UHGV virus genome: UHGV-0186543
Reading direction: 5' to 3' (one strand)
Source: a virus
DNA: 46,602 bases
Position numbers and translations under genes: made by a program. This document shows, in pieces, positions 7,782 through 44,388 of this stretch. Positions within the stretch are counted from its first letter, which is position 1. The number at the start of each line of letters is the position of its first letter. The notes under the pieces are model-generated. The model saw only the letters and a list, made by a program, of their open reading frames with translations, had not been told where the DNA came from and searched no databases.

Positions 7782-9995
7782 ATGACCATTTTTAACGGCT
7801 TGTTAGAAGCGAAAAAAGGCGCGCTCAAAAACGGCGCGATCCCGGCGCTGGCCATCGCCATCGACGCCCCTAACAAAAAAGTTGCCGAGAACATCATCAT
7901 CGGCAAATTGTGGGAAGCCTACCCTGACCACGGCGACAACTATTTCAAACCTAAAATCTGGGAAGATGCCCCGGGCCAACCGCGCCCAGGCGTTGGTGAG
8001 TTTGATGAGACGTTCGCCACAGAACACAGTTTTGATGGCGAAAAATGGGTAGTTAACACCCCCGTTGTAGATAGCGGTTCAGCAGATATCGCACAGGTTA
8101 ACGACCTGATGAAACTGCCGGCTCGTGAACGATTCGCCGCCGTTCTGCTGTTCAGCCACGACGCCAACGAAGTCGACAGTGAATTGCTTGCGCAGACGCG
8201 TGAATACCTGGAGATGCTCGACAACAGTGATACTGACAGTGAGGATGAGGTTGACGCATTTAACCGCATCGTTCTTGATGCCATGGTGGCGTGTAAGCCC
8301 ATCGAGTACATGCATATTGCTGGATTGAATAATCTGGTACATGCAATTTTGGCAAGTTGCGATACCCAGGAACAAAACCCGACCAGTTGGACTATCTCCA
8401 AATTTATAAAAAAATGGGTAGAGAATCCCGGTAAACGCGATGAAATGCTGCCGGAGGTAAAACCAGAAACAGCATCCGCACGTCCTTACCAACAGACTCA
8501 CGCCACACTGGATCGTGAAATTGCCTGCGCCCTGTTACCCGTTGGCCCGGAAAAAATCACCCCCAGCGTCCTGAAAGCGGCAGACGAAATAATCAGCCAG
8601 GATCGGGAGGATTTTAAACGCTGGTCAATGGCCTTGCGCACAACGGATCAGATCCTTGCCTATGACCGCGCATCAGTATTCGGTGTTATTCAGAGCGCCC
8701 CCGCAAAAGACACGTACCACTTCCCACAATCCCTGCGCAGTCACATCGACAACTGGCTGCAAGCTAACGGGCAGCGTGATGCAAATGCTGTTGAAGAGAA
8801 GCCAAAGGAAGCAGCACCAAAGGATGATGTAAAAGTCACCAACCACGGCGGCGGACGATTCTCAATTGATGGGATGATGTCAGAAACACCCTCAAATCAT
8901 GGCGAAAAAAGCGAAGCTGCAAATGCTGGAGAACGTAGTTTGCAGCAGTTGCGTGAGCGGTTTGTCACGCCTCGCCATGTGTATGACGTACCTGAAAATA
9001 ACGCCGTCTCACAGAGGGAACCTACAGCTATTACCCCGGCAGAAGAGACTCCTCCACAAGAAAAACTTAGCGAGCAGGTAAAGGATCTGGTGCAGAACGT
9101 TGACGCGCTGGTTGAGCGGATCCATACCGAAGAGCACAAGCGGCAGAATGCAATCTCAGCTATCGAAACGGAGTTAAAGGACTCCGACGACACAGATAAC
9201 CTGGCATTGTGGAAGAACGTATTCAAAACCGATGAGCGCTTCACCAGTGCTTTCTCTCAGAACGGCGGCGGCACATCCATCAACGGCACTTATATAGCGA
9301 TGAAAGCGACTCGCGAATTTGGGCCGTTTGGTATTGGCTGGGGTGTAGAGGTGGTGGAAGAGCGTTTTGATAAAGGCGCACCGATAGTTCGCAAAAAACA
9401 GGTTGGTGAAAAAATAGAATGGGATCTGATTCAAGACGGTGTTGGCGGGTACCTATGTGAAATGCACCACACCATGAAAGTTAGAGTCTGGTACATATTG
9501 AATGGAGTGCGCGGTGAGTCCGAGGCTTACGGATGCACACCTTATATCTACGACACTAAATACGGACCAACAAGCGACGGCGAAGCGCCGAAGAAATCCT
9601 GGACGGATGCTGTTAAGAAAGCGCTATCCCCTCTCGGATTCAGCGCCGATATTTTCATGGGCCTGTACGACAATCCGGAATACCGCCAGAGGAATAAAGC
9701 TGAGTTTGATATCAAGAATGCCAGCGAGAATGCGGAAGATGCTACCCGTCTGCGTAAGGAACTGGATGAGAAGCTTATCAACGTTGCCAATACGCTGGCC
9801 TCCGCGGTAACCACTAACGAAGTAAACAAGGTATTTGGCCTCATCGCCCGCGAAGTGGATGTACACCGAAAAGCAGCAGAAGCCAAAGGCGATAAAGAAT
9901 ATTCATCGTATCTGGGATCGCGCCTGCGCCGTATCACCGACATCAAAACTGAACGCCTCGCCGCCCTCACCGCTGCACAGGAGCAAACCGCATGA
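7782..9995 (+). CDS. large protein with a C-terminal Rad52/Sak-type single-strand annealing domain
   Basis: 737 aa. The C-terminal part, YIAMKATREFGPFGIGWGVEV ... APKKSWTDAVKKALSPLGFSADIFMGLYDNPEY, follows the Rad52 pattern (YIEG..VI..AN..FG..GW ... KEAVTDGLKRALRSFG). The roughly 470-aa acidic N-terminal region is unassigned. Confidence 0.6.
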   Translation: MTIFNGLLEAKKGALKNGAIPALAIAIDAPNKKVAENIIIGKLWEAYPDHGDNYFKPKIWEDAPGQPRPGVGEFDETFATEHSFDGEKWVVNTPVVDSGSADIAQVNDLMKLPARERFAAVLLFSHDANEVDSELLAQTREYLEMLDNSDTDSEDEVDAFNRIVLDAMVACKPIEYMHIAGLNNLVHAILASCDTQEQNPTSWTISKFIKKWVENPGKRDEMLPEVKPETASARPYQQTHATLDREIACALLPVGPEKITPSVLKAADEIISQDREDFKRWSMALRTTDQILAYDRASVFGVIQSAPAKDTYHFPQSLRSHIDNWLQANGQRDANAVEEKPKEAAPKDDVKVTNHGGGRFSIDGMMSETPSNHGEKSEAANAGERSLQQLRERFVTPRHVYDVPENNAVSQREPTAITPAEETPPQEKLSEQVKDLVQNVDALVERIHTEEHKRQNAISAIETELKDSDDTDNLALWKNVFKTDERFTSAFSQNGGGTSINGTYIAMKATREFGPFGIGWGVEVVEERFDKGAPIVRKKQVGEKIEWDLIQDGVGGYLCEMHHTMKVRVWYILNGVRGESEAYGCTPYIYDTKYGPTSDGEAPKKSWTDAVKKALSPLGFSADIFMGLYDNPEYRQRNKAEFDIKNASENAEDATRLRKELDEKLINVANTLASAVTTNEVNKVFGLIAREVDVHRKAAEAKGDKEYSSYLGSRLRRITDIKTERLAALTAAQEQTA

Positions 9996-35871: not shown

Positions 35872-36164
35872 CAGATAAACTCCTCATCGCGCCAGATAGC
35901 CAGTGTTCTGAAAACTCCCTCAGCGTGCATCAACAGCAATGAGTCGTGCTCGTAATCCGTTTTTGTACGTCCGTCGATAGCATCGTGACACGCACTACAG
36001 GCGATAGCGCCCTGCATATCGTGAGGTTTGATGGCTGTGCCGCACGTTCCGGCGAGACGATAATGAGCCAGTACGCTGGTTTCAGGATTGTGATTGCACA
36101 CACCGGGGATACGCACAGTACAAGCGCGACCACGTGCAGCTTTTCTCAGGTCGATTTTTTTCAT
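35871..36164 (-). CDS. YbcO-like protein (DUF1364)
   Basis: DLRKAARGRACTVRIPGVCNHNPETSVLAHYRLAGTCGTAIKPHD ... IACSACHD closely resembles my recollection of DLP12 YbcO. Confidence 0.7.
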   Translation of the reverse strand: MKKIDLRKAARGRACTVRIPGVCNHNPETSVLAHYRLAGTCGTAIKPHDMQGAIACSACHDAIDGRTKTDYEHDSLLLMHAEGVFRTLAIWRDEEFI

Positions 36165-36757
36165 GATGTGTAATCCAGCAGCTGCGCGGCAGCATTTTCA
36201 GCGGCCTCCTGAGAGGCAAACGTGCGGAACAAAATATAATTCCACAGCACATCTAAAACGGCTGAATACAGTTGACCGAACTCAAGATCGTCCATCGCAG
36301 CAAACGAGATTGAACGAGGTACGCGCATCAAACTGCCGTCTGGCATCTGATGAACGTCATAAAGCCCAGCTTCCATAATCGCCCATGCGCGAAACGCCTC
36401 GAACGACTTCACAGCACTGATATTCCCCGCGCGCTTTTCCGACTCATCGAGAAGATACTGATCAGCCAGCTCTGCCATGACATCACCGTGTCCACCGTAA
36501 TACGCCAGTAACTTAACGTAGCCATGGACCAGTTCGCGCTCCGCAGGAGAAATAGCCCCTCCGGACGGATGCCAGTAATCAAAGCCCAGGTTTAGAAGTG
36601 AGAAAAATTTACGATGAAACGCGGGATTACGCGCCTGTTTGAAATCTGCATACACAACAGCACCTGGTTTGACTCGTTCAGTCAACCAGCGTTGCGTGTC
36701 TGGTGTCGCGGGTATTAGCGAACCGCCGGATACCCTGATAAATGAATGCTGCGCCAT
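36161..36757 (-). CDS. conserved nin-region protein (DUF1367-like, 198 aa)
   Basis: Size and position are typical of conserved ~200-aa lambdoid nin proteins. The family name is from memory only. Confidence 0.5.
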   Translation of the reverse strand: MAQHSFIRVSGGSLIPATPDTQRWLTERVKPGAVVYADFKQARNPAFHRKFFSLLNLGFDYWHPSGGAISPAERELVHGYVKLLAYYGGHGDVMAELADQYLLDESEKRAGNISAVKSFEAFRAWAIMEAGLYDVHQMPDGSLMRVPRSISFAAMDDLEFGQLYSAVLDVLWNYILFRTFASQEAAENAAAQLLDYTS

Positions 36758-37164: not shown

Positions 37165-37806
37165 TTATTTATCACTCCTGTAAATTGAAATTAACCATTC
37201 TCTAATCGTCGACGCTGCAGGTGGGTCAGAGTATTTCGCCACAAAAATACCGGATATGTATTGCACACCACGCGATAATGGCGCTGTCGGGTTTTCAGTA
37301 AAAAAACGATCAGCCAGTTCAATGGCTTCGCTTTTTAATCTGTGCTGTGGCCGTCCTCCGCCCTTAGTGCCAAGGTAACGCGCCAGTTGTTTGAAACGGT
37401 AGGCGATGATTAACGGTCGCATCATCATATTGAAAAAATCGCGGGCATCGTTGTCAGCGCCTTGCGCTATCAACAGTGCAAAAAACAGATACGGGATTGT
37501 GTACACTTCAGGAGATATACGAACCCGTTCACAAGTTGGTGGAGCCAATTTAATAAGTAAGTCAGCCTGCGAATTCCCCTTTTCTCCACGTTTGTAATAG
37601 CGATACAGCGGCCCGATATCAAGTTCACTCGCGTCGATTTCAGGATGCCCGGCAACGGCTGTACGTATCTCTTCTGCCAGAGCGTCAAATATTGCTCCGG
37701 TCCGCTCAAGATAGAGCCTCCGGGTCGAACCGCGATCATCCAACGCCCGTAACATATCTAACCGGCTAACGAAAGTTTCAGGCCAGCCCTCATAGAAGGT
37801 TTTCAT
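37165..37806 (-). CDS. hypothetical protein (213 aa)
   Basis: ATG start. First minus-strand gene left of the accessory island. No motif recognised. Confidence 0.6.
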   Translation of the reverse strand: MKTFYEGWPETFVSRLDMLRALDDRGSTRRLYLERTGAIFDALAEEIRTAVAGHPEIDASELDIGPLYRYYKRGEKGNSQADLLIKLAPPTCERVRISPEVYTIPYLFFALLIAQGADNDARDFFNMMMRPLIIAYRFKQLARYLGTKGGGRPQHRLKSEAIELADRFFTENPTAPLSRGVQYISGIFVAKYSDPPAASTIREWLISIYRSDK

Positions 37807-37871: not shown

Positions 37872-37902
37872 CTATAAAAAAGAAGACCCGCCGAAGCGGG
37901 TT
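37872..37902 (-). terminator. intrinsic terminator at the left edge of the accessory island
   Basis: Minus strand: AACCCGC-ttcg-GCGGGTC followed by TTCTTTTTTAT. Confidence 0.65.
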
Positions 37903-38119
37903 AGTAAATCATTTGTGCCAAATTATAAGACCACACCGTAAGCTTTTATATGCGTCCTATGGTTATAGCTCATATTATATGCTTCAAAAATATCTATTCT
38001 TTTGTTCTAACGTCAACACCTACCCTTAAAAGATTAATTCTCTAAGAATGAGAGAATGTTGTGTGTATTAGATAAGATATGAGCTGACACATCTATGGCG
38101 TGAAGACAAATTTAATCTG

Positions 38120-38200
38120 ACAGTCCACTTTTTTGCCAGAGCGGATATCGCAAGCGTTAAGTCAGATATTTGAAAACGCATCGTTATCCTGGTTGGGATA
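38120..38200 (+). repeat. R0, degenerate copy of the R repeat
   Basis: TCCACTtttttgccaGAGCGGA hairpin (38124-38146) aligns with the R3 hairpin. ggttgggatac aligns with the G(T/G)GGGAAC block. Confidence 0.5.
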
Positions 38201-38315
38201 CTTGCACTACTTTTAGGCGTACTGCTATCTTGCACAGTTATTCAAAGGTAATTTTTTCTTTATTAGTAGCCTACTTCCAGGGGCTTGTACAACTGACAAA
38301 ACGAGGGAGATCCCC

Positions 38316-39095
38316 ATGAGCAACAAAGATTTTTCACTTTTTTATTTTGCAACCATTGATCGGTCTTACTTCCTCGACAAACACAATTTTTATGTTGCTG
38401 AAGCCAGAAAGCGTCTATTTTCGCAGTTTAGCGATTCTGATCTTGAAGCTGATGCCAGGCAGAGAGAACAAGATTACTATGAGGCCGCCGGTAAGCGTTT
38501 TGACCCCGATTATGACGACGAAGGGGCTATCTGTGAACAGGCTCATGATGAAGGAATTTCACATTGGATTGCTCTCAGTGATATGAAAAATACGGTTTCA
38601 CTTGCTCTGACAGCAGGAATGTTTCATCAGTTCGACAAGGAACTTCGAGAGAAGTGTATCAGAGAATTCAGCCATTGGCTCGACGCTAAATCCGTAACAT
38701 CGATGATCTGGGACATTAGCTTCCCAAGGCTAATTGAAATTCTAGAATGGATTGGGATGGATATCACCAGCAAGGCTTATTACGAAAAAATCGATGCCTG
38801 TCGCCAAGTGGTTAATGTTTATAAGCACGGTGATGGCCATGCCCATCGGGTGCTTTCCGTCGCGCATCCTGAGTATTATCAGGATATCAATATTCCAAGA
38901 GGCTACAGATTTAGTCTACGTCATGAGCAACTTGAGGTTACAGAAACACAGTTTATAGAGTTTGCAGATGCGATTACAGCTTTCTGGAATGATATCCCAA
39001 CATACTGTATGCGCTCAGCTATTCGGGAAGAACCTGAATGGATAAATGGCGAATATAAAAAACATGAGAAGAAAGTTAAAATGCTTCAGGACTAA
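38316..39095 (+). CDS. orphan protein A (259 aa), function unknown
   Basis: ATG with GAGGGAG upstream. About 41% GC by eye. Flanked by R0 and R1. No confident domain (a RQVVNVYKHGDGH segment is only weakly HEPN-like). Confidence 0.7.
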   Translation: MSNKDFSLFYFATIDRSYFLDKHNFYVAEARKRLFSQFSDSDLEADARQREQDYYEAAGKRFDPDYDDEGAICEQAHDEGISHWIALSDMKNTVSLALTAGMFHQFDKELREKCIREFSHWLDAKSVTSMIWDISFPRLIEILEWIGMDITSKAYYEKIDACRQVVNVYKHGDGHAHRVLSVAHPEYYQDINIPRGYRFSLRHEQLEVTETQFIEFADAITAFWNDIPTYCMRSAIREEPEWINGEYKKHEKKVKMLQD

Positions 39096-39180
39096 AATTC
39101 TTGATAATAGCAAGTGTATCCTACATGTAGACATTTGCCTGCCGTGTCTTTTAGCTACCCTAGCTGCGAGAACAATTACG

Positions 39181-39286
39181 AACTTCCGCTCCTCGCTCAC
39201 AGCGAACTTTCAACTCAGTTAGCTTGCCCGCTTCGTACCAAAAGCGGGCATTGCTAACATCTATCTCCATCAATCTGTGGGAACAG
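39181..39286 (+). repeat. R1 structured repeat
   Basis: aacttccgctcctcgctcacagcg block, then an extended hairpin GTTAGC-tt-GCCCGCTT ... AAGCGGGC-att-GCTAAC (39218-39258), ending in gtgggaacag. Confidence 0.85.
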
Positions 39287-39573
39287 CTCGCCGTAATAGC
39301 ACATTGAATTCTATGTCTAAAAGCAGATGATCTGGTTTGCCGGGAAATTTACAAAATGACGGCGTCTCTTGTTAGAGATTCTCCCTGCTTCACACTGCTG
39401 ATTCTTCATGGATTTTAGTATAATTAGTGAAAAAAAATTTTTTGGTTGTTATCATATACATGAGGACTTCTTCAGAGGAACTGAGAAAAATTCGGGGATC
39501 ACTGAACACAATGACAATTAAGAAGATTAACTGTCTGGTAAGTGATTATTTTATTCATTAAAAAACAAACATC

Positions 39574-40236
39574 ATGATAATTGACTTTATAAAAAGCAAG
39601 GAAGCCTTGCTAATATTGGCAATAACTGTTCTATCTTATATGTCTGCAATTTCATTTGAATATGGCTATGCATATCATTTTGATTATCCTATGGAGTTTA
39701 TAACGTTAGATTCTAAATTTTTATTCGTGGGTATGTCATATTTATTTTTTAATATAATTTGTGTTATGTTGATGTTTTTTACTCCATGGCCTGAAAGTAA
39801 AGTAAAAGCAGTTAAAGTTACTGCAGTTACAGTTTTTATCATGATTGTTTTTATTGTTCAGTCTTATAGACATAAGACTGAATATGGTGGTTTTTTCGTT
39901 TTAAGTTTATCGATAGCAACAGTTACTTATATTATATACAAAATTGTTAAAAATCATAAACGTAATCCAAGTTATTTAATTTGGTCTGCAACCCTTCCCC
40001 TTATTGCCATAATGACATTTAGTTTCTTAATTGGTTTACAACAAGCGTCATTAAAAAAAGAATTTAGTTACTTTCATGATCAATCTAAAGACTACGTGAT
40101 TATTAGGTTGTATGACGGTAACCTTGTCGCTAAAGAAGTGAATATAAAAGAGCGCAAGCTAGGGAGTGAGATATTATATATACCTAGCTATAACCCAGCC
40201 CCTATAACGTTAAATAAAATTAAAATAGAACAATAG
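39574..40236 (+). CDS. orphan membrane protein B (220 aa)
   Basis: Very AT-rich. Four to five hydrophobic helices, then a roughly 70-aa soluble C-terminal region. Flanked by R1 and R2. Confidence 0.7.
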   Translation: MIIDFIKSKEALLILAITVLSYMSAISFEYGYAYHFDYPMEFITLDSKFLFVGMSYLFFNIICVMLMFFTPWPESKVKAVKVTAVTVFIMIVFIVQSYRHKTEYGGFFVLSLSIATVTYIIYKIVKNHKRNPSYLIWSATLPLIAIMTFSFLIGLQQASLKKEFSYFHDQSKDYVIIRLYDGNLVAKEVNIKERKLGSEILYIPSYNPAPITLNKIKIEQ

Positions 40237-40379
40237 ATTCATATAGTGGCCTTATGAAAAATAGGTCACTATCGTTGATATTTCATATGAATTTTTAACG
40301 ACCTTGGTAGTAAAATTATCGTAAATCCCCTACATAACAAGACCATTTACTATAGATCTGTTTTACTCTCAATAAAATC

Positions 40380-40480
40380 AACTTCCGCTCCTCGCTCACA
40401 GCGGACCTTCAGTTTTTTGTCCGCTTCGTGTCAGAAGCGGAAGTAGCTAACAACAGCCTATGTTGATTCAAGGGGAACAG
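40380..40480 (+). repeat. R2 structured repeat
   Basis: The first 24 nt are identical to R1. Hairpin TCCGCTTC-gtgtca-GAAGCGGA, then gctaac and aggggaacag. Confidence 0.85.
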
Positions 40481-40572
40481 GTCACTGGGTTAATCTAATT
40501 ATGTCCCTTTAGAACCATCTTTCTTAAGTGAATATATTTTCACTTTATTTTCTACTGCCTCAGTCATAAGGT

Positions 40573-41940
40573 TTATTTTTTGGCTTTTGACATCATGAGA
40601 AGGAAATATGAAGGGTGGCTCTTTATTTCTGAAGAATGGCTTGTAATATTAAAGACATCTTTTAGAATCGTAAAAGCTCCTGTAGCCAACGACACTGGAT
40701 TTGGTGCACCAATAAAACCTATCAATGAAGGCACACTGTTAAGAAAAAGTTCTTTTTTACTCTTCCGCTTATAGGCTTGTATTTTTTGCTCAATATCTGT
40801 CAATCCTTCATCCCACACCCGCTCGACAAAATGTTGATTTATTAGTTGTCTCTTATATGGATCACTTTCTGCTTCTATATCATACGCAGCTTCACGTAGT
40901 ACAGAGCGGAAAGAATTAAAACTCGGCTCGTAGTCAGTTCTAATTTTGTAGAGTTCACTTGGAGTCAGTCCCTCTAAGAATGGAACGTCTATAGAGAGTT
41001 TAACCCTCTGAACTTCATTCTTTTGATCAAGTTTACGAAGAATCTCTCCATGAAACGGGCAATATGCACCCAGGGATGCTCTACATGAATGCGCTTGGTT
41101 AAGGTCAGTAATAAGGTTTTTATAATGAAAGAGAACCGTACGGTTTTTTGCTCCCTGCACCCACCGTTCATAACTTTTTTTTCCGCTATGATTTCCCATG
41201 ACAAGCTCCATAGATATGGAGCCATCATCATTATCAATGGCATTTTTTATATGTTGATACATATATCCATTTGTATATAAACTTTCACAGTCTTTAATTT
41301 CCAACATAATTTCATTCGATAAAACATTTTTGTTTAATAACCGAATTTTATTTGTGTTACCTAGACGTTCTATATTCTTTACGGATAGTCTATTTTCATA
41401 AAGACGGGCAATGTTAGGAGGGAGATATCGATATATAAAATTAGCATCAGAGTTATCGTCTAAAATTCCATTGGCCCTCTCCGAATCTTTAATAGAAGAT
41501 TCGCTTCGTACAAAAACGATAAACTCACCACGGATAAGATCAAAGTTTTCTTTAGCAAACCTGATAAATCTAGCAATTTCCTTCCTGAGATGTTCAACCT
41601 TCTCTTTTCTATCGCTTACAATAATTTTTTCAAATGCATTTTCTGTTAGACTCACTCTGTATCGTAGGCTCAATGAATACAGAACATCATCAAGAATGAC
41701 TCTGTCCATTGAAAACAGTCCACTCTTATACCTTTCAATATTACGATTTCCCGCCATGTAAACATTTAGCCGAGACTCCTGTACAGAATTTGCTTGCTCG
41801 ATAATCAGTGAATCTATTCTTTTATTATATTCATCTAACTCAATTAGCAATTCATTCAATCCAATATTTTCATATTCCTGATCTAAAAGTCGATCAACCC
41901 AGAAAAGGCTTTCTGTGAGGGCATAGAGGTTGTTGTACAT
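40573..41940 (-). CDS. orphan protein C (455 aa), function unknown
   Basis: AT-rich. Own extended -10 promoter (TGTTATAAT, plus-strand coordinates 42028-42036). C-terminal hydrophobic segment LFLNSVPSLIGFIGAPNPVSLATGAFTIL. Flanked by R2 and R3. Confidence 0.75.
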   Translation of the reverse strand: MYNNLYALTESLFWVDRLLDQEYENIGLNELLIELDEYNKRIDSLIIEQANSVQESRLNVYMAGNRNIERYKSGLFSMDRVILDDVLYSLSLRYRVSLTENAFEKIIVSDRKEKVEHLRKEIARFIRFAKENFDLIRGEFIVFVRSESSIKDSERANGILDDNSDANFIYRYLPPNIARLYENRLSVKNIERLGNTNKIRLLNKNVLSNEIMLEIKDCESLYTNGYMYQHIKNAIDNDDGSISMELVMGNHSGKKSYERWVQGAKNRTVLFHYKNLITDLNQAHSCRASLGAYCPFHGEILRKLDQKNEVQRVKLSIDVPFLEGLTPSELYKIRTDYEPSFNSFRSVLREAAYDIEAESDPYKRQLINQHFVERVWDEGLTDIEQKIQAYKRKSKKELFLNSVPSLIGFIGAPNPVSLATGAFTILKDVFNITSHSSEIKSHPSYFLLMMSKAKK

Positions 41941-42092
41941 ATCAGTTCCTTTTTACCAGGCTTCAGTCAGAGTACACTATCATTTTACATTTAAATGTAC
42001 TTCCAAGCATCATGCTGTTAGTGCTGGATTATAACACTTGGCACCCGTATGTTTGGATAACAAACTGCGTATAATCCTTGTGAGTTGTGATG

Positions 42093-42198
42093 TCTGTTTC
42101 TCGCTCACAGCGGGTCTTCAGTTGTTCGTCCACTCTGTGCCAGGAGCGGACATTGATTATTCCTCACTGTAAAAATCTTAATGCTAACTAGTGGGAAC
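42093..42198 (+). repeat. R3 structured repeat
   Basis: Contains ctcgctcacagcg, hairpin GTCCACTC-tgtgcca-GAGCGGAC, gctaac and gtgggaac. TATAAT at 42070-42075 lies just upstream, so R3 would be the 5' leader of the nuclease operon. Confidence 0.8.
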
Positions 42199-42220: not shown

Positions 42221-43072
<852 letters not shown>

Positions 43073-43152: not shown

Positions 43153-44388
43153 ATGACTAAGCGAAATAAAACCCCAAAATTTAACTTGGACAAAGCTCGC
43201 AAAAAAGAGATTCGCGCAGCCTTAACCAGCGTGGGTATGACCCCTCAACATGATGGCTGGGCGGATTTGTTTATGTACGCTTATACAGATGGCAGCAATT
43301 TAAACGGTTTGCAATTGGCCAAAGCCTTATCAGTGCATCCAACGCTGATAAATGGTTTATCGCGCGGCATCAAATTAAAACCAGAGAAAGCGCTCTCCAA
43401 AAAACGACCATCAAAACCTACGCTGGCCGATAAACGCCGCGAGGCCAAACAGAAGGTCAATATGGGCTGGGAAGCGCTGATTCGCACTATGCCTATGCAA
43501 AAGCCAGGCGCACGCAAAAACCCTGAAACAGAAGCCCTTTGGGAGAATGCCCGTCGCCGTGGCACGTCCCAGGCCAGCACGCCAGCATTTACGCCGACAA
43601 TCATCCCGCGCAAGGTTTCCGCTCAAATCAACACCGAATTACCAGGCCTGCAATCAACGCAGATGGAAACACCGAAACGGTATGATTCTGTGAGCATGAC
43701 ATCAAAAGTTACGACAAAGCTGGATAATCGCGTCCTACAGGATTTTCTGGCAAAACACATTCCACCCAGCCAGCGTCGTGATGTTGAGCTTTATATCCAC
43801 AAACACCAGCATGAAGCCACCACGACCATTGAACTGGTACAGCGGTACCTGGATGATCAGGAAGAAAAGCAAATCATCCGAGAAGCCGAGAAGCTGGCCG
43901 ATGTTGTTCCGGAACTGGTAGCCGATGATCGAATCATCATGTCGCAGGAAGTAGTGGTCGTCGTGGAGGAAGAGAAACCCGCGCCCGCGCTTGGCCAACC
44001 TGTCAAACTCCACAGTACCCGAACCGCGCAGCGCATCGTTGAGCAGCGCGACGCGACGGCGCATATGCAGTTTGTTGAATGGGTATGGAATAATTTTGCT
44101 GGCCGTTGCGCGGTGACTGGCTGGCAGAACGGCGAACGATTGCAAGCGGCGCACATTGAGCCAGCTACCTCAGGCAATTTTAGCGCTGATAATGGCCTGT
44201 TGTTGACTCCAACGATACACGACTTACTAGACGCAGAGCTGATGGCCGTCAACCCTGAAACAATGACCGTACATTTTGCCCCAGGTATTGAGCTCGGCGC
44301 GATGTTTGAAGGCAAAGTGATTGAGCCTAAATTATGGCCGCTGAACATGGCCGCGTTGGTTAAACGCTGGAAAGAACGGAAATTCTGA
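43153..44388 (+). CDS. protein with a C-terminal HNH (HNH_2-type) nuclease domain
   Basis: 411 aa. GRCAVTGWQNGERLQAAHIEPATSGNFSADNGLLLTPTIHDLLDAELMAV fits the HNH_2 pattern (C.vTG ... L.AAHI.P ... NGLLL ... H.lfD). The ~300-aa basic, low-complexity N-terminal region is unassigned. Confidence 0.75.
   Translation: MTKRNKTPKFNLDKARKKEIRAALTSVGMTPQHDGWADLFMYAYTDGSNLNGLQLAKALSVHPTLINGLSRGIKLKPEKALSKKRPSKPTLADKRREAKQKVNMGWEALIRTMPMQKPGARKNPETEALWENARRRGTSQASTPAFTPTIIPRKVSAQINTELPGLQSTQMETPKRYDSVSMTSKVTTKLDNRVLQDFLAKHIPPSQRRDVELYIHKHQHEATTTIELVQRYLDDQEEKQIIREAEKLADVVPELVADDRIIMSQEVVVVVEEEKPAPALGQPVKLHSTRTAQRIVEQRDATAHMQFVEWVWNNFAGRCAVTGWQNGERLQAAHIEPATSGNFSADNGLLLTPTIHDLLDAELMAVNPETMTVHFAPGIELGAMFEGKVIEPKLWPLNMAALVKRWKERKF

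Follow-up and report, generated by a model that had tools for sequence, protein, structure and literature searches.

The virus genome UHGV-0186543, a stretch of 46,602 nt that is referred to here in its entirety as the window, harbors three genes of low GC (guanine plus cytosine) content, named gene A (38316-39095, + strand, 259 aa), gene B (39574-40236, + strand, 220 aa) and gene C (40573-41940, - strand, 455 aa). That A, B and C are independently acquired single-gene cassettes is well supported. They are located in a slot between the nin/Q region on one side and the replication genes on the other, which is a variable cargo hotspot, and the host element is, judged from its gene content, an E. 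coli prophage whose head and early genes are lambda-like and whose tail is P2-like. We favor the reading, with a probability of about 0.55, that the slot is a moron and defence hotspot and that most, or all, of these genes shield the lysogen from other phages. That A, B and C have a role in defence or exclusion is plausible on grounds of association and of one fold assignment, and support for it is strongest for C, then for B, and then for A. Cargo in prophage hotspots is already known as a kind, and the families of A, B and C are uncharacterised. If they do protect against phages, three uncharacterised families would join the defence repertoire. The most unexpected feature of the region is a palindromic element of about 72 nt at copies of which the cassettes appear to be joined, each cassette carrying its own promoter-like sequence.

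In the original prediction, made from the letters of the window, three AT-rich open reading frames (ORFs) had been described, and indeed GC contents of 41.9% (A), 29.0% (B) and 35.7% (C) were determined, compared to 47.7% for the whole window. Similarly, the GC content at third codon positions (GC3) is 0.39 for A, 0.24 for B and 0.30 for C versus 0.45-0.54 for backbone genes. As full-length homologues are kept elsewhere, A, B and C are real genes rather than chance ORFs. They had also been thought to be oriented against the phage operons or independently of them. This is the case for A and B, which are encoded on the + strand and oppose the early-right and late operons on the - strand, but not for C, which is encoded on the - strand in the same direction as those operons; the - strand of the window carries Q, lysis, late and replication genes alike. 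Among 5426 complete E. coli genomes surveyed, A was found in 18, B in 6 and C in 57, and each of the three was also found alone in unrelated mobile elements. The genes show presence/absence among collinear phages (the backbone segment 36161-37900 occurs in 474 of the 5426 genomes, the A-B-C set in only 6), a deviant composition (GC of 29-42% versus 47.7%) and, as far as can be judged from promoter-like sequences, promoters of their own (TGTTATAAT 5' of C and TATAAT 5' of B), as is characteristic of morons. In related prophages the same slot is occupied by other genes, which in strains AR_451 and GF131 comprise an ImmA/IrrE pair, an AAA-ATPase pair, IS1 and further hypothetical genes. The separate distributions, the recurrence of each gene alone and these other occupants are in agreement with the earlier view of the three genes as horizontally acquired single-gene cargo of a temperate phage.

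The extents of the cassettes were defined by comparison with other loci. The A cassette (38134-39199) is 94.5% identical to positions 7818-8884 of the E. coli locus L031, where two copies of the palindromic element flank A. The B cassette (39341-40380), which includes about 230 nt upstream of the gene with the promoter-like TATAAT at 39419-39424, shows 80% identity to P4-like satellites of Klebsiella (L004, 7774-8797). The C cassette (40513-42113) is 89% identical to the E. coli island loci L002 and L028 and 82% identical to the Serratia locus L010. Three copies of the element, all in + orientation, are present in the window: copy 1 (39181-39252; 72 nt, with two palindromic half-sites) begins 86 nt past the stop codon of A, copy 2 (40380-40445; 66 nt) separates the 3' ends of the convergent genes B and C, and copy 3 (42089-42154; 66 nt) separates the 5' ends of gene C and its divergent neighbor PD-T4-3. 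Upstream of A, a right-half remnant, GTCCACTTTTTTGCCAGAGCGGATATCG (38120-38150, + orientation), can be aligned to the right half of the complete copy that precedes A in L031. Thus each gene sits between repeat copies, as had been noticed originally. The breakpoints of homology of the A, B and C cassettes are all located at or within repeat copies; homology of the B cassette ends at the first base of copy 2, and the right breakpoint of the C cassette falls inside copy 3.

The P2 gpA-portal, P4 psu-int and P4 primase-att intervals are named defence hotspots of temperate phages and their satellites (Rousset et al., 2022, PMC9122126; Moura de Sousa et al., 2026, PMC13586616). The gpA-portal slot is the main defence hotspot of P2, and the primase-att interval is a minor one of P4, accounting for 7% of systems (PMC13586616). 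The slot studied here resembles these hotspots in being a fixed position between core genes with fast-swapped cargo of low GC content, often single unknown genes beside known systems, and homologues of B (in P4) and of C (in P2) occupy exactly those slots. In contrast to the P2 and P4 hotspots, it lies in a lambda-like early region, between nin/Q and replication, and A, B and C are not recognised systems. Because the known defence gene PD-T4-3 (GIY-YIG; 42266-43072, + strand, start according to RefSeq), detected with PADLOC model PDLC04031 (E = 6.9e-138) and Pfam LEM-3_GIY-YIG (E = 7e-13), adjoins gene C, the slot already has a recognised defence gene. If the proposed protective role is true, the lambda-type slot between nin/Q and replication would join those of P2 and P4 as a place for mining defence genes.

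Gene C encodes a member of an uncharacterised family of about 450 aa. Its close homologues form 31 clusters in Enterobacterales, and a profile search against 1.84 billion representatives (E <= 0.001) revealed at least 444 clusters for the whole family at 50% identity clustering, nearly all of about 450 aa and aligning from end to end, with Y38, D85 and W260 being invariant. The family is large, is represented in neither Pfam nor PADLOC, and is found repeatedly in the P2 hotspot. In a structural model (pLDDT, predicted local distance difference test, of 74.5), the N-domain is alpha/beta, the middle part is rich in beta structure and the C-domain is helical. The hydrophobic helix with which C had been predicted to end is retained in part. 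Residues 404-432 (VPSLIGFIGAPNPVSLATGAFTILKDVF) are Gly/Ala-rich and moderately hydrophobic, and in 60 members of the family hydrophobicity is highest in the last 75 residues, with a median maximum of 1.58 and values of at least 1.6 in 27 of them, but the maximal Kyte-Doolittle value of 1.18 for the segment of C itself is below the cut-off of 1.6 for transmembrane (TM) segments. The extended -10 sequence claimed for C was located at 42036-42028 on the - strand, where TGTTATAAT forms a predicted promoter element about 90 nt 5' of the start codon; a simple promoter scan omits it because it has no good -35. In the mechanism that we envisage, C would reside in the cytoplasm, its N-domain being Rossmann-like, and on activation the conserved hydrophobic hairpin at its C-terminus, rich in Gly and Ala, would insert into the membrane and damage it, leading to abortive infection. 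Between window and E24377A, two homopolymers differ in length by 1 bp, one at about 40575 (3' end of C) and one at about 40413. The 1-bp insertion in the window alters the last 5 residues of C and leads to a protein of 455 aa versus 459 aa in RefSeq; these differences may be sequencing artefacts or real variation.

The surroundings of C homologues were studied in other mobile elements. In P2-like prophages of Morganella (L011-L013, 8001-11033) the C homologue is located between gpA and portal. There and in Serratia marcescens (L010, 8001-11038) it is followed after 66 nt by a co-directional gene for a 534-aa Ser/Thr kinase that matches the PD-T4-6, mad6 and Stk2 models, so that the two could be a two-gene system or two adjoining single-gene systems. 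Although this arrangement resembles kinases of the PD-T4-6/Stk2 type, C itself has no kinase features, the homology with Serratia ends exactly at the stop codon of gene C, and the kinase is absent from the window and from the other E. coli contexts. On a plasmid of Serratia fonticola the C homologue occurs alone. A subfamily with 40% identity to C is found on plasmid islands of Yersinia and Pantoea (L014-L016, 6896-9365; L025-L027), close to PDC-S32/AbiJ-like, Abi_2, HEPN and ParDE genes, and is always preceded, with a gap of 10-14 nt, by a gene for a protein of 361-363 aa with a weak N-terminal match to DUF6364. C would be expected to act alone here and, in other elements, to be paired with a Ser/Thr kinase or a 361-aa partner. 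In the CP4-like island of E. coli O157, the C homologue lies beside a weakly AbiU2-like HEPN gene, a type I restriction-modification (R-M) system and DarT/DarG. In O157 this gene is intact, but in other genomes the island copy of C has often decayed. In many E. coli other than O157 (L028-L030) it is truncated by IS3 or split into short ORFs, and the 172-aa AbiU2-like neighbor stays intact at such decayed loci. Also, a conserved divergent module composed of genes for a 257-aa tyrosine recombinase, a 234-aa protein and a 145-aa protein adjoins the pair formed by the 361-363-aa protein and the C subfamily.

For gene B, a polytopic membrane protein with a small soluble tail had been predicted, and this description holds. 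Five hydrophobic segments with Kyte-Doolittle values of 1.85-2.36 and positively charged cytoplasmic loops are predicted by hydropathy as TM helices (residues 10-30, 47-72, 75-98, 106-125 and 134-156), followed by a C-terminal tail of 60 aa. As the loops 69-82 and 125-136 are K/R-rich, the tail is probably periplasmic according to the positive-inside rule. B is a near-orphan with only four homologue clusters (75-100% identity). In P4-like satellites of Klebsiella pneumoniae, which carry Psu, Delta, AlpA, Ash, DUF5375 and primase, a relative of B is encoded directly after the primase and before the end of the element, and in a third context B stands beside SIR2_2 plus HerA and an MqsA-like gene. 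Prophage superinfection exclusion by membrane proteins is exemplified by P22 SieA, T4 Imm and HK97 gp15. Like such proteins, B would be a small prophage-encoded polytopic inner-membrane protein, is encoded opposite to the phage operons, has a promoter-like sequence and is very AT-rich; in contrast, it has no sequence relation to any annotated family (PHROG, Pfam above cutoff, NCBIfam, PDB), those of Sie and Imm included. We suggest that B, residing in the inner membrane with its small C-terminal domain in the periplasm, might block genome entry in the manner of superinfection exclusion. In the Klebsiella satellites (L004-L009, 8001-9625) the B homologue is always accompanied by a convergent gene for a 261-aa protein without family match and then by variable cargo, which in L009 includes the PADLOC candidate system Hp1-3 with a PDDEXK domain of the GAPS4 type. 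Neither this 261-aa protein nor the 172-aa neighbor in O157, both considered as possible relatives of A or B, is related to either of the two.

Gene A encodes a soluble all-alpha protein for which a confident model (pLDDT 93) was obtained. In this model a four-helix up-down bundle of the HEPN fold is present, and the best structural matches are the HEPN toxins of HEPN-MNT pairs. Homologues of A form 86 clusters distributed over Gamma-, Beta- and Alphaproteobacteria, and H104, K108, R111, W132 and the segment N167-V-Y-K-H171-G-x-G174 are invariant in the family. A second candidate motif, R16-x6-H23, is found in the N-terminal helix; of 50 homologues, 49 have the His but only 30-35 (60-70%) have the Arg. 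As a canonical Rx4-6H motif is not clearly conserved, A is termed HEPN-like in fold only, and its place in the catalytic HEPN family is unproven. When compared to HEPN proteins such as HEPN-MNT toxins, AbiU2, AbiJ, RnlA/LsoA and Csm6, A differs in having no Pfam HEPN match, in its size of 259 aa, about twice that of a HEPN domain, and in its top motif N-V-Y-K-H-G-x-G, which lacks an Arg at the expected spacing. In the mechanism suggested for it, A would act as an infection-triggered RNase or as an RNA-binding effector of abortive infection. In another E. coli context, A is located at the end of a prophage beside a satellite-like integrase, and a relative is present in an integrative element of Accumulibacter.

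Several results weigh against a protective role of the three genes. None of A, B and C significantly matches Pfam, NCBIfam or PADLOC. With PADLOC-DB v2, one of the searches proposed along with the original prediction, no family was obtained for any of them even at E <= 0.1, while the positive control PD-T4-3 was recovered at 6.9e-138. A comparison of the C model with BFVD using Foldseek, also among the searches proposed, gave nothing at E <= 0.001. No Pfam or PADLOC family (PADLOC, E <= 0.01) was found for gene C or for 60 diverse members of its family, and PDB sequence searches with profiles A1, A2 and A3 and with protein B gave nothing meaningful. In A, the most conserved block contains Val and not Arg at position -5 of H171, and a canonical, well-conserved Rx4-6H is absent from this segment. 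Also, a homologue of A resides in the leading region of a plasmid, with ArdA, PsiB and anti-restriction genes around it. Finally, in other genomes, same-orientation arrays of the palindromic element flank cassettes encoding LysE, an alpha/beta-hydrolase, APH(6), an AAA_33 kinase, GNAT and a SAM-methyltransferase. As the repeat also bounds such metabolic- or resistance-like cassettes, the cassette architecture is not specific for defence, and the element delimits cassettes in general rather than marking defence genes. The original proposal of defence or exclusion cargo stands in so far as PD-T4-3 is a neighbor, homologues of B and C reside in defence hotspots and A has a HEPN-like fold, but no known defence model is matched. 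Additional searches were in line with the uncharacterised status of the families: for A, neither the protein nor any of 50 homologues has a Pfam match (HEPN families included), NCBIfam and PADLOC gave no match, and PHROGs gave only phrog_19541 (function unknown); for B, no PHROG, NCBIfam, PADLOC or PDB sequence match was obtained, and the best Pfam match, 7TMR-DISM_7TM, is sub-threshold with 19.7 bits versus a cutoff of 29 bits; for C, no match was obtained by tblastn against 50,697 deposited phage records. When 50 homologues of A and 60 members of the C family were scanned, only scattered sub-threshold matches appeared, for example to DUF6236 in two members (E = 0.0013), and a literature search by RefSeq protein accessions of the genes found no paper.

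It is unlikely, if not negligibly so, that A, B and C are instead generic morons with host-fitness roles (envelope, stress or metabolic) that were brought in by repeat-mediated cassette exchange. The LysE, hydrolase, APH(6), AAA_33, GNAT and methyltransferase cassettes bounded by the same repeat in other Enterobacterales would be expected in such a case, as would the lack of a defence-model match for A, B and C and the presence of an LprI-family gene in the same slot. However, homologues of B and C recur in published defence hotspots (P2 gpA-portal and P4 primase-att) and beside SIR2-HerA, R-M/DarTG and Abi genes, and the HEPN-like fold of A and the adjacent PD-T4-3 are also more readily understood with defence cargo. 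For A, a different role has to be considered, namely that of a counter-defence or establishment gene of incoming plasmid or phage DNA that neutralises host systems. On a plasmid of Pantoea ananatis, a homologue with 59% identity is located in the leading region, between DUF905/ParB/PsiB/PsiA and ArdA/DUF1380/anti-restriction genes, and this arrangement recurs on metagenome contigs. Yet the Pantoea homologue is antisense to all leading-region genes, A is found in E. coli at prophage or satellite ends and in the present hotspot, and a HEPN-like fold is typical of toxins and effectors, which makes a counter-defence role quite improbable.

It is hardly to be expected, either, that one or more of the genes constitute the toxic half of an addiction module similar to toxin-antitoxin (TA) systems that stabilises the prophage, with A as HEPN toxin or B or C as membrane toxin and any anti-phage effect being secondary. 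The toxins of HEPN-MNT pairs as best structural matches of A, a sub-threshold Pfam match of B to the membrane toxin family Cpta_toxin (E = 0.071) and the ParDE- and MqsA-type modules near C homologues point in this direction. On the other hand, the shared homology blocks contain no partner ORF for A, B or C that resembles an antitoxin, be it MNT or another, A is twice as large as the HEPN toxins of TA systems, and the Cpta_toxin match of B is far under the cutoff.

The palindromic element has the consensus AAC-GTCCGCT-CCTCGCTCAC-AGCGGAC-(18 nt)-GTCCGCT-yCGTGCCAGr-AGCGGAC-GTT. It is present in 1730 of the 5426 E. coli genomes (32%), with 1-5 copies each that are almost always intergenic, as well as in many genera of Enterobacterales and in 23 viral contigs. 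As the calculated chance expectation for a 17-mer is about 70 in 596 Gb, only Enterobacterales matches carrying the whole element were counted as real copies. Junctions between cassettes carry the element in prophages, in P4 satellites, on islands and in chromosomal arrays (L031, L004-L009, L010, L028, L033, L062, L109, L124, L169), and in L062, L109 and L124 arrays of 2-4 copies on the same strand occur, sharing one orientation whatever the orientation of the genes. Also, one viral contig encodes a C-family member with only 19% identity (hhalign E = 1e-96) that likewise has the element at its flank, with the relative orientation preserved. Folding as RNA or DNA, either into two local hairpins or into one long hairpin, was considered and rejected, as pairing in 44 copies amounted to 83.8% versus 83.4% and to 82.5% versus 83.1% in shuffled controls, and covariation over these copies was no better than in the controls. 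The conserved palindromic sequence would rather fit a role at the DNA level, for example in protein binding or recombination. The only Rfam match in the region was a spurious snoRNA, with no Rfam family for the repeat, and a literature search by the repeat sequence found no paper.

The element resembles integron cassettes, attC sites and CALIN (clusters of attC sites lacking integron-integrases) arrays in that single genes are set apart by imperfect palindromes (64-76 nt) of uniform orientation and in its AAC...GTT consensus. In contrast to attC, only AAC...GTT is common to both and the rest of the R''/R' core sites (RYYYAAC ... GTTRRRY) is unmatched, covariation does not support the folding of a strand, the genes stand in either orientation with promoter-like elements of their own, and the breakpoints lie at varying positions of the element. 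No integron integrase turned up, although no search aimed at IntI was made. Possibly, though this is doubtful, the element is a dedicated cassette junction, serving as recombination substrate or protein-binding site, that lets single genes swap among prophages, P4 satellites, islands and plasmids of Enterobacterales. If so, it would represent a low-copy integron-like exchange system without integron that also moves new defence families such as the C family. The route by which defence genes move between unrelated elements is unclear (PMC13586616), and such a junction element would provide a mechanism for the exchange left unexplained there. Whatever the function of the genes, the element offers a concrete, testable handle on the movement of cargo between unrelated mobile elements.

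Six complete E. coli genomes, among them those of E24377A, SE11 and TUM13936, have a chromosomal prophage with 99.5-99.6% identity to the window region. Its RefSeq annotation in these genomes lists head, lysis and Q/nin genes resembling those of lambda, a tail resembling that of P2 and a replication module of the DnaB type. On the nin side, the slot is preceded by a DUF1367 gene (36161-36757), a DUF1364 gene and a gene for a 213-aa protein (37165-37806), and on the replication side an ORF6N gene and then a helicase gene are encountered. The left edge of the variable slot is formed by a terminator-like hairpin (37886-37901, - strand), up to which related prophages and phage vB_EcoM-705R4 are homologous to the window, the phage diverging immediately after position 37903. 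Beyond PD-T4-3, the same hotspot contains a gene for a 411-aa protein with an HNH endonuclease domain (43153-44388, + strand; Pfam HNH_2, E = 2.3e-8; weak PADLOC HNH match). Neither of these two neighbors of gene C had been mentioned in the original prediction. Finally, 160 nt of non-coding DNA at 37986-38145, ending in the repeat remnant, are 87% identical to segments of L033 (14514-14674) and L034 (13826-13986). These counterparts sit elsewhere within the hotspot of related prophages, and the segment looks like a leftover of an earlier cassette exchange.

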